Assembly (NCBI GenBank): GCA_041601615.1
Contig: JBFIHX010000004.1
Location: 64,001-128,000 of the forward strand
Reading direction: 5' to 3'
Length of the DNA stretch: 64,000 bases
From: Thermoplasmatota archaeon
GTDB lineage: Archaea > Thermoplasmatota > E2 > JACPAO01 > JAHFTW01
The position numbers and the translations under genes were made by a program. The notes below the pieces were generated by a model. It worked only from the letters and a program-made list of their open reading frames with translations. It was not told the DNA's origin and did not search any database. Shown here piece after piece: positions 10,430-48,795 of the stretch. The stretch's first letter is position 1. The number at the start of each line of letters is the position of its first letter.

Positions 10430-10559
10430 GGCGTCGAAGAACCCACGCAGACCCCCCAAGGCCGTGCAAGCACGGCCTCGGGGTCCGCTCGGCCCAAGGG
10501 CCTCGCTGTCTTGCGCTGAACCTTTGGCGCTATTCAGCGCCAAAGAACCCGCGCAAGAC
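10430..10559 (-). mobile_element. Structured gene-end element at the secY stop with a displaced, recoded copy of the secY 3' end
   Basis: 10430-10450 encodes LRGFFDA versus LRGFFGA at 10536-10556; fold-back arm 10508-10531; core GGTCCGCTCG..CTCGCTG and CCGTGCAAGCACGG shared with 46416-46677; mobility is inferred. Confidence 0.65.
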
Positions 10560-19153: not shown

Positions 19154-19335
19154 GAATGGTTCTCCTTGTATGCGGCGAGGACAGGTAACCCGGGTGGGTT
19201 TCTGGCCCCTTAACACCCAGCTCGTTTCCTTGCGGGATGCGGCCCGACCGCGGCGGGCAATGATGCGGTTTGATGGAGTCGAGGCATAGCCCTGACTCCT
19301 CTCTGGGGCGCGGTGAGGTGGCGCGAGATATAAGG
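19154..19335 (-). promoter_or_regulatory. Putative TATA-box promoter and long structured 5' leader of the rps17 sub-operon
   Basis: CCTTATAT on the minus strand at 19328-19335; hairpin at 19275-19299; AAGGAG SD-like motif before the start. Confidence 0.5.
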
Positions 19336-19582
19336 TTGGGGGTGGCTTCGTGTGGAGACGAACGGGTGTTCTATCTTCGGTGATTTGTAATGATTTTAGG
19401 GGAATGGCCGCCCCAATTGCCCCAAATAAATCCCCCCTTTGCAGTCATGAATAGATAGTAATGAAGAGGCATCGAGGCTAATTTGGCCTAATATTAGGCT
19501 CGGTGCGACCTGAGGGGTGTCGAATTTATCCTATAGAATTTTAATTCATAAATATTATATAGATATTTAATTGGGCCCCTTC

Positions 19583-20128
19583 ATGGAGACATTCTCCGAG
19601 CAACTACCACCCACCGTGATCACCAACCTGGACCAAATCCAAGACGGCCAAATCATTTCCATCAAGAGTGCGACGTTCGACAACGTCTTCCTGCGCATGG
19701 ACGGATCCGGAGTCACAAAGGCGACCGCCCAAGGGCAAGGCTCGGTCAATTGCCAATTCGGCGCCTATGAATGGGAGCAATTCCGCATCTGCAGGCACCC
19801 TTTCAACGCCTTCACATTCGAGTCCGTGGCCCACCCCGGTGTTTACCTTCGCATGGACGGCAAGAACGTTGTTCAGGACGAAAAGAACGGCGCGGGCACA
19901 GTCAACTGCCAGTTCGGGTACGGACCGTACGAGTTCTTCACGCTGACACAACTAGCTGACTCCATATTTGGCATTGAATCGGCCCTCTTTGACAGAGTCT
20001 ACCTCCGAATGGACGGGAGCAAGGCCGACGCATTTTCCGGCACCGGAGCCGGAACCGTCAATTGCCAATTTGGCGCAGTGGGCGCTGAACGGTTCTATCT
20101 CGTAGTTCACTCATCCCCGCCGGCTTGA
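19583..20128 (+). CDS. Three-repeat beta-trefoil (fascin-like) protein, probably horizontally acquired
   Basis: Three repeats of (I/F)xS..(P/D)xV(Y/F)LRMDG...G.VNCQFG...E.F; AT-rich upstream region. Confidence 0.75.
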   Translation: METFSEQLPPTVITNLDQIQDGQIISIKSATFDNVFLRMDGSGVTKATAQGQGSVNCQFGAYEWEQFRICRHPFNAFTFESVAHPGVYLRMDGKNVVQDEKNGAGTVNCQFGYGPYEFFTLTQLADSIFGIESALFDRVYLRMDGSKADAFSGTGAGTVNCQFGAVGAERFYLVVHSSPPA

Positions 20129-20242: not shown

Positions 20243-20351
20243 CTACCGTACTTTTTTGGTGCGCCCATCGTCGCCCCCTCTGGGGCCACCGAAGGTCCAC
20301 TCGCCTGCGGCTCGCCGCAAAATGAAAGCCCTACCGGACCTTCTTTGTGCG
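20243..20351 (-). mobile_element. Structured gene-end element at the rnp1 stop with a synonymously recoded duplicate RTKKVR*
   Basis: 20243-20263 and 20331-20351 both encode RTKKVR* with 4 third-position differences; core CGTC-hairpin-ACCGAAGGTCC(A/G)CTC-hairpin-TCGC shared with 46563-46614; mobility is inferred. Confidence 0.7.
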
Positions 20352-20666
20352 ATCTTGAGACCGGAACTCAATGGCCCGACCTTCCACAATCACGGGCTCC
20401 CCCGTGCGGCCGGGTGACTGAAATGCAAACGTGCATGCCGCTTTCGCCAACTGCACGCGCCGACCACCGGAGCCACCCACGCGCAGGGTCAATGTGTGCA
20501 GCGTCTCGCCCACCACGTCGCCCGTGAGGCCTTGGATGCCGGCATCGGCACTGTCGTGGACGGTGCAGAGCAAGCCCACGAGTTCGCCACGGGCCACGCT
20601 TTTGGCCGGGCCTTGGAGTCGAGGGACGAAACGCTTCACGGGGCGGCCGACGCAGAGGGGCTTCAA
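20331..20666 (-). CDS. rnp1: Ribonuclease P protein subunit Rpp29 (component 1)
   Basis: ELVGL..V....GL.G.VVGET..TL; conserved position between SUI1 and rps17; start uncertain. Confidence 0.8.
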   Translation of the reverse strand: MKPLCVGRPVKRFVPRLQGPAKSVARGELVGLLCTVHDSADAGIQGLTGDVVGETLHTLTLRVGGSGGRRVQLAKAACTFAFQSPGRTGEPVIVEGRAIEFRSQDRTKKVR

Positions 20667-21070
20667 AGCAGTTCGGCGGTGGTGATGATGGGGACGCCTG
20701 CCTCAAGTCGGAGGGTTGCATCGTGCGTCCAAAGGATGCCGTGGACGGCGAGGGTGCATGCGACATAGGGTGCGTCTTTGGAACCGGATCGTTTGCATCG
20801 TTTTCGAGCTTCGGTTGCATGGATGGCCATCATGGCCTCCGACACACTTTCGATGCGGTCTTGGAAGGCTGCCCACACCGCTTCGAATACTGCGGGGGCG
20901 AGGAGGCTTTTTTTCAACAGAAATTCACGCCGAGAGGCCGCTTCCTCCCAAAGCCAGGCTGGGGCATAGAGGGGGCGGTCCAATTCCAAAATCAGGCGTC
21001 GGGTAGCTACATCTCGAAGAAGCGCACTGAACAGGAGGTTGGCATCCACCACAAGAGGTGGTTCAATCAA
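20663..21070 (-). CDS. vapC: PIN-domain (VapC-like) toxin
   Basis: VVDANLLFSAL, KDAPYVA and LWTHD acidic PIN motifs; TTG start overlaps the antitoxin stop. Confidence 0.85.
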   Translation of the reverse strand: MIEPPLVVDANLLFSALLRDVATRRLILELDRPLYAPAWLWEEAASRREFLLKKSLLAPAVFEAVWAAFQDRIESVSEAMMAIHATEARKRCKRSGSKDAPYVACTLAVHGILWTHDATLRLEAGVPIITTAELL

Positions 21071-21290
21071 GGGCTTCGAACCGCCGCGCCATTGATTCGT
21101 CCACGTCGCGGGCCACATCAGAGATGTCAGCCTCGGTCAGTTCGGACTCGGCGAGCAATCGGTCCCAGACATGCACATGATCCAGCTTGCGCCGGAATGC
21201 TTGGCGTGCCACTTCGGACCACTTGATTTCCTTGTGGCGCTTAATCTCCGCAAACAACTCGTCGTCCACGGACAGGGTCATGTTGGGCAC
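21063..21290 (-). CDS. Ribbon-helix-helix antitoxin (VapB-like)
   Basis: PNMTLSVDDEL....K.H.EIKWSEVARQA; directly upstream of the PIN gene. Confidence 0.8.
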   Translation of the reverse strand: MPNMTLSVDDELFAEIKRHKEIKWSEVARQAFRRKLDHVHVWDRLLAESELTEADISDVARDVDESMARRFEALD

Positions 21291-21293
21291 AAC

Positions 21294-21321
21294 CAGAAAT
21301 ATGTGTGCCCACATATTTCTG
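21294..21321. promoter_or_regulatory. Perfect 12-bp inverted repeat CAGAAATATGTG-TGCC-CACATATTTCTG, candidate toxin-antitoxin autoregulatory operator
   Basis: Immediately upstream of the antitoxin start; RHH antitoxins commonly bind such repeats. Confidence 0.65.
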
Positions 21322-21327
21322 TGTTGC

Positions 21328-21636
21328 TCAGTCGGCTTTGGCTCGGAACCCCATTTCGTCGAGGACCCCGACGACTTTTCGGACGTGGTCACCCTGCAAT
21401 TCAATGTGCCCTTCCTTGAGGGCCCCTCCACAAGCGCACTTGCTCTTGAGCCGAGTCAGGAGTTTTTTGGCATCGATGCTGGAATCGTTGAACCCGGTGA
21501 TGATGGTCATCAACTTCCCGTAGCGACGGGAATCTGTGGTAATCCTGAGTTCCAACTGCTCTTTGGCAATGGAATCCAGTTCGTCGAATTCTGAGAGTTC
21601 GGGTGGCAAGCCTGCTGCGCTGAAGATATCACTCAT
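21328..21636 (-). CDS. SUI1/aIF1-family translation initiation factor, paralog lacking N-terminal cysteines
   Basis: RRYGKLMTII.G; LKSKCACGG; IELQGDH. Confidence 0.9.
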   Translation of the reverse strand: MSDIFSAAGLPPELSEFDELDSIAKEQLELRITTDSRRYGKLMTIITGFNDSSIDAKKLLTRLKSKCACGGALKEGHIELQGDHVRKVVGVLDEMGFRAKAD

Positions 21637-21789
21637 CGAGCCGTTCGCAGATTGGATGGAGGCTCGTCTGGAAAAGCGTGACGGACACATCCCCGAAAGT
21701 ACAAAGGCCCAATAGTCGGCCCAAAACGCGGCCGAGGGAGTGTTGGATAAGGAGAGAAAGTGGAAAAAGGAGGGACAAGGACGTGTCGA

Positions 21790-22089
21790 TCAGTCAACGC
21801 GACTGTCGAAGCCAAGCTCTTGCAGGACTTTCTGCACTTTGCGCGCGTGGTCTCCCTGGAGTTCGATGTGATTCTCCTTCCGGGTGCCTCCACAGGCGCA
21901 CTTGTTCTTGAGCTTCGAGAGCAGACCATCCATGTCGATGCTGGTGGCGTCGATGCCGTCCACGATGGTCATCTTCTTGCCGTAGCGGCGGGTATCCACA
22001 AAGATGCGGATTTCCTGCTGTTCGCGGGCGATGTCCTCGCAGACGCAGATCTCCTCCGGCAGGCCACAGCCTGTGCAGATGCCGCTCAT
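21790..22089 (-). CDS. sui1: SUI1/aIF1 translation initiation factor with N-terminal Cys cluster
   Basis: CTGCGLPEEICVCE; RRYGKKMT; CACGG; IELQGDH; overlaps the rpl29 stop. Confidence 0.93.
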   Translation of the reverse strand: MSGICTGCGLPEEICVCEDIAREQQEIRIFVDTRRYGKKMTIVDGIDATSIDMDGLLSKLKNKCACGGTRKENHIELQGDHARKVQKVLQELGFDSRVD

Positions 22090-46415: not shown

Positions 46416-46677
46416 GGCTACGCCCTCGGCAAACCTAGGGTTTTGGCAATCACCACCGTCCCGTGCAAGCACGGGCCGAAGGATTCCTCGGGCTTCGCCC
46501 TAGGCATCGCGAAAACGACTCCCCCTCGCTACGCTCGGGGCAACCCTAGCGTTTTCGCGATCCCCTTCGTCGCCGGACAAGCCGGCACCGAAGGTCCGCT
46601 CGCTGCGCTCGCTGATTACCAAAACCCGTTTCCCTCGGGCTACGCCCTCGGCAAACCTAGGGTTTTGGCAATCACCA
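46416..46677 (-). mobile_element. Tandem pair of 111-bp structured gene-end elements with three copies of the acyl-CoA dehydrogenase 3' end
   Basis: Stop codons at 46640, 46529 and 46418 (111 bp period); 46416-46455 identical to 46638-46677; 46529-46561 encodes the same [10 protein letters not shown] with 7 synonymous changes; mobility is inferred. Confidence 0.8.
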
Positions 46678-47797
46678 TCCTCTGCACTTCCGACGAACCC
46701 TCGCCGATCTCACAGAGCTTGACATCGCGGAACATGCGCTCCACTGGGTAGTCCTTGGTGTAGCCGTTGCCGCCGTGGATCTGAATCGCCTCGGTGGTGG
46801 CCTTCATGCCGACTTCGGAAGCGTAGAGCTTGCCCATGCTAGCTTCTTGCGTGAACGGCTTGCCTTGGTCCTTGAGGACGGCGGCGCGTTGCAGCAGGAG
46901 GCGGGCCGCGTCAATCTGCGTGGCCATGTCGGCGAGTTTGAAGCTGATGGCTTGGTTGGCGGCGATGGGCTTGCCAAATTGCTTGCGCTCCTGGGCGTAG
47001 GCAAGGCTTGCGTCCAGCGCTCCCTGCGCGAGGCCAAGCGCGAGGCTGCCGATGGCGATGCGGCCAGCGTCGAGGGTCTTCATGGTGCCGACGAAGCCCT
47101 GTCCAATGCCGGCGTCGCCGCCAATGACGCGGTCGTCTGCCAGCCACAGGTCTTCAAAGTAGAGTTGGCTCGTGATGCTGCCGCGCATGCCAAGTTTGTC
47201 TTCCTTGTTGCCCATGTTGAGGCCTTTCTCGCCCTTCTCGCCAATGAACGCCGTGATGCCGTGCGCGCCCTTGGAGGGGTCCGTCTTGGCCATGATGGTG
47301 AAAGTGTCCGCGATGTGGCCGTTGGTGATGAATTGCTTCTGGCCATTGATGAGCCAGCCGTCGCCCTCGCGCACCGCCTTGGTTTCGAGGCCCGCCGCGT
47401 CGCTGCCCGCGCTCGGCTCTGTCAGGCACCAGGCACCGATTTTCTTGCCCTGCGCCATGTCCGGGATGTATTTTTGGACCTGCTCGGGCGTGCCTTGGCC
47501 GTAAATGTGGCTGATGCCGAGGCCGTTGTGGGCGGCGAGGCTCAAACTGAGGCTGCCACTGACGCGAGCAATCTCCTCGATGGCAATATTGTAGCTCACG
47601 GTATCGAGGCCGCTGCCGCCGTGCTCGGGCGCGACCGTCATGCCCATGAGGCCCATGGCGGACATCTCGGGGACCATTTCGGCGGGCCACCAATCCTCGG
47701 CATCCATCTTGGCTGCGATGGGGCCAACGCGGCTCTCGGCGAACTCACGCATGGTCTGGCGGATGAGCTCTTGCTCCGGCGTCGGTTGGAAGTCCAT
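46640..47797 (-). CDS. Acyl-CoA dehydrogenase
   Basis: [10 protein letters not shown]; [10 protein letters not shown]; ERKQFGKPI; QIHGGNGY; [10 protein letters not shown]. Confidence 0.95.
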
Positions 47798-47919
47798 GAA
47801 ACGACCACGCAGGGTGTGGGTCTTGGGCGTTTCGCACTTGGCCGGCGCCTAAAGCAACGCTCGCGTCATGCTGGACTTGTCCCCAAACCCTTGTGGCGCC
47901 TGCTGCCGAGGAACAGGGT

Positions 47920-48795
47920 ATGAACAGACGCACTCGGTTCATGGTACTCGCCTTGTCGGCATTGCTGTTGCTTGCCGGCGCCTCCGCCATTCACCCCCAG
48001 GCCCTGCAAAATGGCAAAAACGTCATCTTCACGCACGGCGGCGGCAACGAATGGTGGGTTCAAGTGCGGCTCACCGGCACGGGCGGCGCGTCTGCCACTT
48101 CGGTGCAGGCGATGGACACGGGCGGCGGCTGGGTTCCGTTGAATTCCCAGACTTGGGGCGGCGACCACACCTGGTGGGCCGGCAGCTTCCACATCGAGCC
48201 TGGAAACAAGGTGATGTTCCGCGCCAATTTCCCCGGAGTCAACGAATTCCAGAGTTGCTGGTTTAGCCACCCGGCCGGCGTGGAAGATTGCGCCCCGCCT
48301 CCCTCGGGAACCCCTGGGCCGCCCGGACCCCCTGGGCCGCCTGGCCCTGCTGGTCCGATGGGTGCAAACGGAACTGATGGAGCGCCAGGCACCGCCGGCC
48401 CCCCCGGACCTCCAGGACCACCTGGACCGCCGGGCACCAACGGAACAAACGGAGCCCCAGGCCCCGCTGGACCCCCCGGACCCGCCGGCACCAACGGCAC
48501 GAATGGAGCACCGGGACCTTCGGGTAGTACCAAGGTAGACGGCACCCCATCCAACTCGGCAACCGGTGCCGCAAAAGGCACCCAAACCGCCGCCACGGCA
48601 TCCTGTGCCGCCGGCAAAATTCTGCTAGGCGGCGGGGCGGTTGTCACCACGACAGACACGGCCTTAGACAAGGTTGTGCTGGCCTCGTCCTATCCATCAA
48701 GCACGACTACTTGGACCGCCACGGGCACAGTGCTCGCCAATCTCAGCTCGGGCAAGATCATGACCGTGCAGGCCTTCGCCTTGTGTAGTCTCTAG
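47920..48795 (+). CDS. Secreted collagen-like protein
   Basis: Signal peptide; N-terminal beta domain; long Gly-X-Y run rich in GPP; C-terminal C..GK..LGGG..SYP domain. Confidence 0.85.

Follow-up and report, generated by a model that had tools for sequence, protein, structure and literature searches.

A duplicated rnp1 gene tail in a marine archaeon, read as a probable unit of a small structured repeat family restricted to one family of Thermoplasmatota

Small structured repeats at the ends of genes are well studied in bacteria, where they are represented by the REP and BIME sequences. These sequences, together with the REPINs, are short extragenic hairpin repeats that occur in hundreds of copies per genome and are found with RAYT transposases. 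To our knowledge, small structured gene-end repeats have hardly been studied in archaea. Casposons carry a Cas1 integrase and terminal inverted repeats and have a fixed duplication of 14–15 nt, and translational bypass is known both from gene 60 of phage T4 and from the mitochondrial ‘byp’ elements, the latter being mobile G+C-rich hairpins that lie inside genes. REP, BIME and REPIN sequences are also treated in the abstract of PMC2817692. For genomic islands in the ends of tRNA genes or of the aEF-2 gene, and for casposons, it has been described that the gene is regenerated and that a displaced copy is left behind (abstracts of PMC4383910 and PMC6563490). Whalefall-1 (RF01762) is a structured RNA that has been reported from marine environmental DNA only, and is regarded as a certain RNA of unknown function (Weinberg et al. 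2010, PMC2864571). In the archaeal genus Pyrobaculum, C/D-box sRNA genes overlap the ends of genes and a MITE-like sRNA family has been described, with no tail duplications in the sections of the source that deal with them (PMC6009581).

The locus considered here lies in a stretch of DNA of 64,000 nucleotides (termed the window in what follows) from an archaeal genome of 2.79 Mb with a G+C content of 62% and a completeness of 93% (G000). At the end of the rnp1 gene of this genome there is a stretch of 109 nt, which we read, at a probability of roughly 0.55, as one unit of a small, non-autonomous, structured repeat family that is restricted to a single family of uncultured marine archaea within the Thermoplasmatota. 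The features of the locus are the following.

19571–20128, plus strand: beta-trefoil-like gene with three internal 156-nt repeats; a neighbour and not part of the element.
20243–20263, minus strand: X2, a non-functional second copy of the rnp1 tail, read as a target-site duplication.
20264–20295, minus strand: core part 2, a second hairpin (lower stem, variable upper stem, four-base loop) from the predicted fold and from covariation in 49 copies.
20296–20315, minus strand: core part 1, a mini-hairpin (loop of three bases) and then the family's nearly invariant 10-nt motif, from an 11-copy alignment and model matches.
20316–20330, minus strand: fold-back arm, an imperfect complement of X1 by predicted pairing, with the stop codon at the hairpin tip; seen also at other loci.
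20331–20351, minus strand: X1, the functional rnp1 tail of six codons and the stop (RTKKVR-stop), the real end of the Rpp29 ORF.
20331–20666, minus strand: rnp1, the host gene, encoding the RNase P/MRP protein Rpp29 (ORF; PF01868, E 2.8e-14).

The rnp1 gene has orthologues in 35 of 41 related genomes, and here it belongs to the large ribosomal-protein operon of the minus strand, which runs from L29 through two SUI1 paralogues, a small ORF with a PIN_2 ORF, rnp1 and the beta-trefoil-like gene to S17, the beta-trefoil-like gene being opposite in strand to the rest of the operon. The C-terminal peptide RTKKVR is conserved within the Thermoplasmatota family. As a first-pass annotation of the DNA had noted, the 3′ end of rnp1 is duplicated as RTKKVR-stop: X2 is identical to X1 at 17 of 21 positions, and the four differences are all synonymous third-position changes. 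The two copies are 88 nt apart from start to start and are separated by 67 nt, X2 lies in another frame, and the duplicated stretch of 21 nt can be extended up to 24 nt. The fold-back arm that had been proposed at 20316–20330 does pair with the gene tail in the predicted fold of the region, which has a z-score of −1.9.

A degenerate codon pattern for RTKKVR-stop has matches at X1 and X2 only in the 64-kb window, with a chance expectation of 0.03 (100 shuffles, none of which held two matches), and a match of 17/21 within 400 nt downstream of rnp1 was reached by none of 1000 shuffles. Random single-base changes in the rnp1 tail are synonymous in 15 of 54 cases, which gives a P of ~0.006 for four out of four. 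An exact-seed repeat finder did not report the pair of 21-mers because no exact seed of 7 is present in it. Comparison with two congeners (G001 and G002) places one of the changes in X1 and one in X2; the remaining two are not assignable to either copy from this comparison. DNA contigs from three runs of one study, one of which may be the assembly's own source, span the rnp1 element unchanged. Among contigs from four DNA runs, which cannot reveal rare variants, none had the joined form of rnp1 without the element. The rnp1 locus gave no match to Rfam at E ≤ 1. Two further explanations of the doubled tail were rejected: a foreign rnp1 allele that left the native tail behind is unsupported, the identities being symmetric (75% between G000 and G001 and 75% between G002 and G001), and in-frame read-through is contradicted by the in-frame stops that follow and by periods without frame bias.

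Across the family, a unit comprises the tail of a gene with its stop codon, an arm that pairs with this tail, a core of ~65 nt that forms two hairpins and, in many cases, the tail once more. Its host is either a conserved gene, whose stop codon it follows immediately, or a tRNA, where it comes after the 3′ end. An alignment (A1) and a model (R1) were built from 11 copies; R1 yields 14 matches at E < 0.01 in G000, which with one additional site (E 0.049 with R1 and 0.0067 with R2, a covariance model built without the rnp1 locus) make up 11 loci. When searched for with the covariance model, the core was found in 20 of the 24 other genomes that belong to the same taxonomic family, as against none of 16 genomes from seven other families of the order and class. 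The host genes in G000 encode an OB-fold protein, SecY, Rpp29 (rnp1), two acyl-CoA dehydrogenases, a NusA-like KH protein, V-ATPase D and TFIIB (TFB); one locus lies ~140 nt behind a LigB-like gene, and of the remaining two, one is a copy next to a tRNA, whereas in the other at least four 83-nt units form a tandem array. In relatives, the additional hosts are aEF-2, the stalk protein P1, cytochrome b, a biotin-lipoyl protein and several tRNAs. Contig C4 of G000, which makes up 8.5% of the genome, carries seven of the 11 loci (binomial P 7.5e-6). Nine of the 11 are co-oriented with the upstream gene, and in copies with an upstream ORF the core usually starts 13–32 nt after the stop; against a co-directional reading, one tandem array is antisense to both flanking genes and one copy beside a tRNA is on the other strand. 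Literature searches found no description of such an element, and the family is a new, taxonomically restricted, structured gene-tail repeat. The window also holds the following features of the SecY and first dehydrogenase loci.

10431–10555, minus strand: SecY unit, with X1 at 10537–10555, the core at 10447–10512 and a decayed X2 at 10431–10449 (SecY by Pfam).
46416–46677, minus strand: two tandem units with a period of 111 nt behind an acyl-CoA dehydrogenase gene (46640–47797).
46638–46677, 46529–46561 and 46416–46455, minus strand: dehydrogenase tail copies, the second with synonymous changes only and the third identical to the first.
46557–46622 and 46446–46510, minus strand: dehydrogenase cores.

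The tail of the first dehydrogenase is present three times, as two identical 40-mers and a middle copy whose codons differ at synonymous sites only, and each of the repeat units has its own fold-back arm together with a core like that of rnp1. An ORF with long collagen-like Gly-Pro-Pro repeats is found at 47893–48795 (plus strand). The array of at least four 83-nt units ends two contigs, C4 (235600–235753) and C9 (1–210), which are probably adjacent, with the assembly broken by the tandem array between them. The ribosome-binding site and start codon of the neighbouring opposite-strand gene recur in every unit of this array. A second dispersed repeat of ~80 nt with a hairpin of its own is present in G000 (C4:186274, C21:876, C21:6568 and C5:16723), and it has an exact 17-mer in common with the core of the dehydrogenase unit. 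In one relative (G021; C23:6300–9364, ~1400–1700), a 76-nt duplication with 75/76 identical positions flanks a core near an opposite-strand tRNA-Met; this is a complex rearranged tRNA locus that also holds an extra copy of the anticodon arm.

In the core, the nearly invariant 10-nt motif stands between a mini-hairpin, whose loop has three bases, and a second hairpin. In the latter, a conserved lower stem is joined to a freely varying upper stem that is often closed by C-U-U-G; the second-hairpin loop of the rnp1 copy differs from C-U-U-G. Tandem G-A pairs were noticed by eye on the flanks of the first hairpin, which makes L7Ae-type proteins candidate binding partners. Across 49 copies without the rnp1 locus, in an alignment that was fitted to the covariance model, 96.9% of the second-hairpin cells are paired, as against 64% in shuffles and 31–46% with slid partners, and 10 of the 11 pairs of this hairpin are changed on both sides in the 49 copies. 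This covariation bears out the compensatory stem changes that the first-pass annotation had proposed for the core shared by the rnp1 stretch and positions 46564–46614. The arm between the stop codon and the core is complementary to the last 15–25 nt of the gene. At NusA, in 18 genomes picked by eye from 24 (a nineteenth, G013, was later shown by the model to have the core), the tail folded with its own arm has a mean energy of −27.0 kcal/mol compared with −19.3 kcal/mol with the arms of other genomes, and the own-arm mean was reached by none of 5000 permutations; the arm therefore tracks the synonymous changes of its own gene. In a young 76-nt insert at the second dehydrogenase locus, the tail–arm duplex has an energy of −29 kcal/mol, which was reached by none of 1000 shuffles, and on a reading of the folding output the predicted duplex would include three G-U pairs.

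Folding on the sense strand, that is co-directional with the host gene, is better than on the antisense strand for the core in 43 of 47 copies and for the tail plus arm in 35 of 47, in copies that are related to one another rather than independent and with an advantage that comes partly from the loop bonuses of the energy model; this suggests that the element works as RNA and not as DNA. The element would work as RNA after transcription as the 3′ UTR of the host mRNA, and most likely, by analogy with bacterial REP, it would provide a structure that stabilizes or defines the 3′ end. In G007 and G005, the rnp1 tail contains the reverse complement of the 10-nt core motif. Judged from this match, the core may have originated as the fold-back arm of an rnp1 tail hairpin, or the match may be a coincidence.

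A direct repeat was found around the core in 27 of 47 copies at a shuffle p ≤ 0.02. In these significant repeats the upstream copy ends at the stop of the gene and the start of the downstream copy falls in the final 12 nt of the core; the repeat lengths are 12–76 nt and the periods 74–170 nt, with frame remainders of 9, 10 and 8 that show no preference. At the second dehydrogenase locus (C4 of G000, ~203.9 kb) the 76-nt insert is accompanied by a perfect 25-nt duplication, and both congeners have the uninterrupted site. Two coupled genes overlap here, the stop of one with the start of the other, and because the duplicated stretch covers both signals, neither gene is disrupted by the insertion. 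G002 lacks the element at the V-ATPase D and OB-fold gene sites, which are occupied in G000 and G001, and behind the first dehydrogenase there is one unit in G001, two in G000 and at least three in G002, with none in three other genera; it follows that units have been gained, tandemly amplified and lost. No near-identical donor copy of the 76-nt insert was found in G000, so that recent copying within this genome is unsupported; a longer relative of the insert was not found there either.

It is proposed that the element enters a site with duplication of the target tail (12–76 nt). Such duplicative entry would keep the upstream frame and the downstream neighbour whole, and RTKKVR-stop would occur twice as a result. 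The family would spread by duplicative insertion along a route that possibly needs no enzyme of the element's own, for example a copy mechanism based on template switching between nearby loci, to be followed by tandem amplification and loss of units. The enzyme search took in the TnpB zinc ribbon (PF07282), the Y1 transposase (PF01797), the reverse transcriptase (PF00078) and the tyrosine recombinase; the first three had no match in the 93%-complete G000, and the tyrosine recombinase had three. A diversity-generating retroelement was rejected, there being no PF00078 match in G000 and the differences between copies not being adenine-specific.

The three tyrosine-recombinase matches bear on a second reading, according to which the unit is a scar or miniature of a site-specific integrative element, with tail copies that resemble attL and attR and a tyrosine recombinase that acts in trans. 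The synonymous differences would then be explained by a gene tail that came in with the element, in the manner of islands in tRNA genes. The targets are those typical of integrative elements (tRNA 3′ ends, aEF-2 and other conserved genes), the synonymous bias between the tail copies is strong, the second NusA tail of G019 resembles the functional tail of other species of its genus, and a regenerated target with a displaced fragment is a known mark of islands (abstract of PMC4383910). All three recombinase matches, however, are on contigs that have no core match, merely 64–110 nt lie between the tail copies, and no integrase is found next to any copy. One core serves many different targets, unlike a sequence-specific integrase; the sole insertion seen against empty sites has identical, undiverged copies, and the arm tracks the first copy and not the second. 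An integrative scar is thus considered to be quite unlikely.

The distribution of the units has also to be weighed against the idea that they are resident, non-mobile cis-regulatory RNA modules, the extra tails of which come from tandem duplication or unequal crossing-over and are kept for the downstream gene, for example as its start region. The element is at the orthologous NusA site in most genera, with 11 of 19 NusA loci matching at E ≤ 0.001 and the motif visible by eye in more of them. The arms show compensatory change, tandem arrays of two to at least four units exist, and the second copy abuts or overlaps the next start codon in G019, in G023 and at the second dehydrogenase locus. A tail–element–tail order, on the other hand, cannot come from tandem duplication of tail and element alone, the same core is found behind at least 12 unrelated genes and beside tRNAs, and presence and absence differ between congeners at four loci. 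At rnp1 the gene that follows X2 is convergent, and X2 therefore cannot be a start region. We regard a resident module as unlikely, and retain duplicative insertion as the preferred reading.

When the first and second tail copies are compared, 49 changed codons are synonymous and 13 are non-synonymous, in 18 rows that comprise the protein-coding loci with a long upstream frame and that are uncurated, three of them with an uncertain reading frame; in four of the 13 non-synonymous cases the codon falls in the part of the second copy that runs into the core stem. This synonymous bias has a P of 7e-19 against an expectation of 25% and of 4e-10 against 40%, and the extremes, in which all changes are synonymous, are TFIIB in G016 (eight changed codons) and NusA in G019 (seven). 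The second NusA copies of G019 and G023 differ by one change in 27 nt, compared with differences at 48 of 152 third positions between their NusA genes, which indicates that some second copies are constrained where they lie; the G019/G023 copy may serve as the start region of the next gene, whose start codon it abuts. Other second copies are decayed, interrupted, or non-synonymously changed with compensation in their own arm. Duplication with neutral decay fails to predict the synonymous bias, and an added constraint on the second copy or a turnover of units is needed. There are three candidate accounts: the second copy may be constrained whilst the first drifts at silent sites, units may turn over within arrays, or units may arrive from diverged lineages.

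The same 49:13 bias is what speaks for translation of the second copies, the element being removed by an endonuclease and a ligase or being skipped by ribosomes, so that both copies would be under selection as protein. The codon-like variation among NusA second copies across genera and the conservation of the G019/G023 copy point in the same direction. This account is very improbable: the stop of the first copy already yields the whole protein, a number of second copies have a frameshift, a nested hairpin inside them or no stop any more, and no bulge–helix–bulge motif was seen on inspection by eye. Moreover, the period remainders (9, 10 and 8) show no frame preference, and the second copy at V-ATPase D has non-synonymous changes that are compensated in its own arm.

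A more active part could be given to the arm, as a guide by which the element would select sites, or would be retained at them, through RNA-type pairing with the target tail, G-U pairs included, with the second copy as a working part and not debris. Tail–arm pairing is already there in the youngest insertion. We hold such a guide function to be decidedly unlikely; if it were true, the unit would be an RNA-directed element that has no enzyme of its own, or that makes use of one from the host, homing to the stop-codon region of conserved genes and leaving the genes intact.

With regard to the family as a whole, the rnp1 copy is a divergent, weak member that is found in G000 only. In leave-one-out scoring with R2, the rnp1 core obtains 28.2 bits, and the resemblance to the core that had been claimed in the first-pass annotation stands out from chance among 30 rnp1 loci, where the core of G000 is the only match (E 0.0039), and does not do so over the whole 2.79-Mb genome (E 0.13). 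A sequence-only nhmmer profile built without the rnp1 copy did not retrieve it genome-wide, and blastn and nhmmer queries with the rnp1 element gave no significant match elsewhere. As a comparison of sequences, the likeness between the 67-nt stretch and 46564–46614 appears only moderately significant by itself, and the copy is identified because of its R2 score together with the architecture that it has in common with the rest of the family. The genome-wide E of 0.13 with the excluding model and the miss by the sequence-only profile are the points in favour of a chance resemblance in G+C-rich intergenic DNA, which we consider extremely improbable in view of the shuffle tests on the 21-mer, the P of 0.006 for four synonymous changes and the full family architecture at the site.

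No core was found at rnp1 in either of the two congeners, and local alignments of the 210 nt behind rnp1 with 12 relatives were all non-significant; the rnp1 copy is therefore read as an insertion in the lineage of G000 itself. It would have arisen after the split from the two sampled congeners, with the 21-nt copy as its target duplication. Relics of the element behind rnp1 in G002, G003 and G005, which had been an impression by eye, were dropped as the alignments were non-significant, and a second tail copy in G003 (14/21, shuffle p 0.02) did not hold up once testing at 28 loci was allowed for.

The gene between rnp1 and S17 had been described as foreign-looking, and it had been suggested that the element plays a role in cargo capture. 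The first of these points holds, in that outside G000 and G002 the relatives of the beta-trefoil-like gene found in a species-level genome collection are only bacterial, with 43–52% identity; they are records from Actinomycetota and Planctomycetota. Between G000 and G002 the gene is 54% identical and the flanking S17 95%. A role in cargo capture was not borne out: G002 has the beta-trefoil gene at the same place and an rnp1 locus without a core match, and none of the 29 other rnp1 loci has the core, though many hold other genes between rnp1 and S17. At the other ten loci of G000 the element directly follows its host gene or adjoins a tRNA, and no further gene separates the core from the host. 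Across the family, the rnp1–S17 interval varies with or without the element.

Several other features of this neighbourhood were observed. A PIN_2 toxin-like ORF and an overlapping small ORF upstream of it (20663–21431, minus strand) lie between the second SUI1 gene and rnp1; the pair is found in G000 only, being absent from the loci of G001 and G002, and a perfect palindrome of 12+12 nt (21294–21321) is located just upstream of it. The two tandem SUI1/eIF1 paralogues (21328–21690 and 21790–22089, minus strand) are ~55% identical, and since both occur in several genomes of the family the duplication is old. Upstream of S17 there is a leader of ~190 nt with a TATA-like box (~19217–19330, minus strand), which is conserved across genera of the family (L002, L006, L010 and L018) and has no match in Rfam; S17 seems to have its own promoter here rather than directly following rnp1.

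The family is of interest for its defined and strongly covarying structure, for its sharply limited taxonomic range, for a number of loci that comes to about a dozen in each genome, and for its targets, which are the tails of the most conserved genes. It brings together an unusual trio of properties, namely a hairpin made from the last codons and the stop of the host, long target duplications, and mainly synonymous differences in the second copy. As such, it offers a testable case for the structuring of archaeal mRNA 3′ ends, for harmless insertion at the stop codon of an essential gene and for mobility without a recognizable transposase. For annotation, the family accounts for pseudo-duplicated gene ends and assembly breaks in these genomes.

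Among the systems described so far, Whalefall-1 is like the core in having two hairpins, the second with a C-U-U-G loop and then a G-rich run, and the passages that describe it in PMC2864571 make no mention of gene tails or duplications. The gene-tail family has no Rfam match above threshold; one NusA-site copy aligns to Whalefall-1 at 23.6 bits, the best score obtained, below the gathering score of 37 bits; the cut-off was passed by none of 41 genomes, other weak matches did not coincide with the element, and in G000 there was no match at all. Like MITEs, the units are small, non-coding and present in multiple copies, and insertion with target duplication is shown at one locus. Unlike MITEs, they have no terminal inverted repeats common to the copies, the flanks of the core varying by locus to match the host tail; their target duplication is long and variable (12–76 nt, with 25 nt verified against empty sites) rather than short and fixed, and no parent insertion sequence was found (PF07282, PF01797 and longer relatives of the 76-nt insert).

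With genomic islands and casposons, the family has in common the use of the 3′ ends of tRNA genes, aEF-2 and conserved genes, where a regenerated end is accompanied by a displaced copy. It differs from islands in that neither an integrase nor cargo lies between the copies (67 nt at rnp1, and 74–170 nt from start to start in the family), and from both in being an element of ~100 nt in or beside which no integrase or Cas1 was seen, in a duplication whose length is not fixed and in the use of one core for many targets. The 12–76 nt of the gene-tail family do not fit the fixed 14–15-nt duplication of casposons. The inserts of translational bypass are similar in that a matching codon context comes some tens of bases after a hairpin that holds a stop codon; in the gene-tail family, by contrast, the protein is complete at the first stop and nothing indicates that ribosomes resume.

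REP and BIME sequences are like the archaeal family in being extragenic hairpin repeats just behind genes, often in arrays, that have no gene of their own and are thought to act at the 3′ end of the mRNA. The archaeal family has about a dozen loci per genome as opposed to the hundreds of REP, and the Y1/RAYT gene that accompanies REP and REPIN sequences (PF01797) has no match in G000. It also shows long target duplications, whereas REPs make none, and its arms are locus-specific, unlike REP, because they pair with the tail of the host gene itself.
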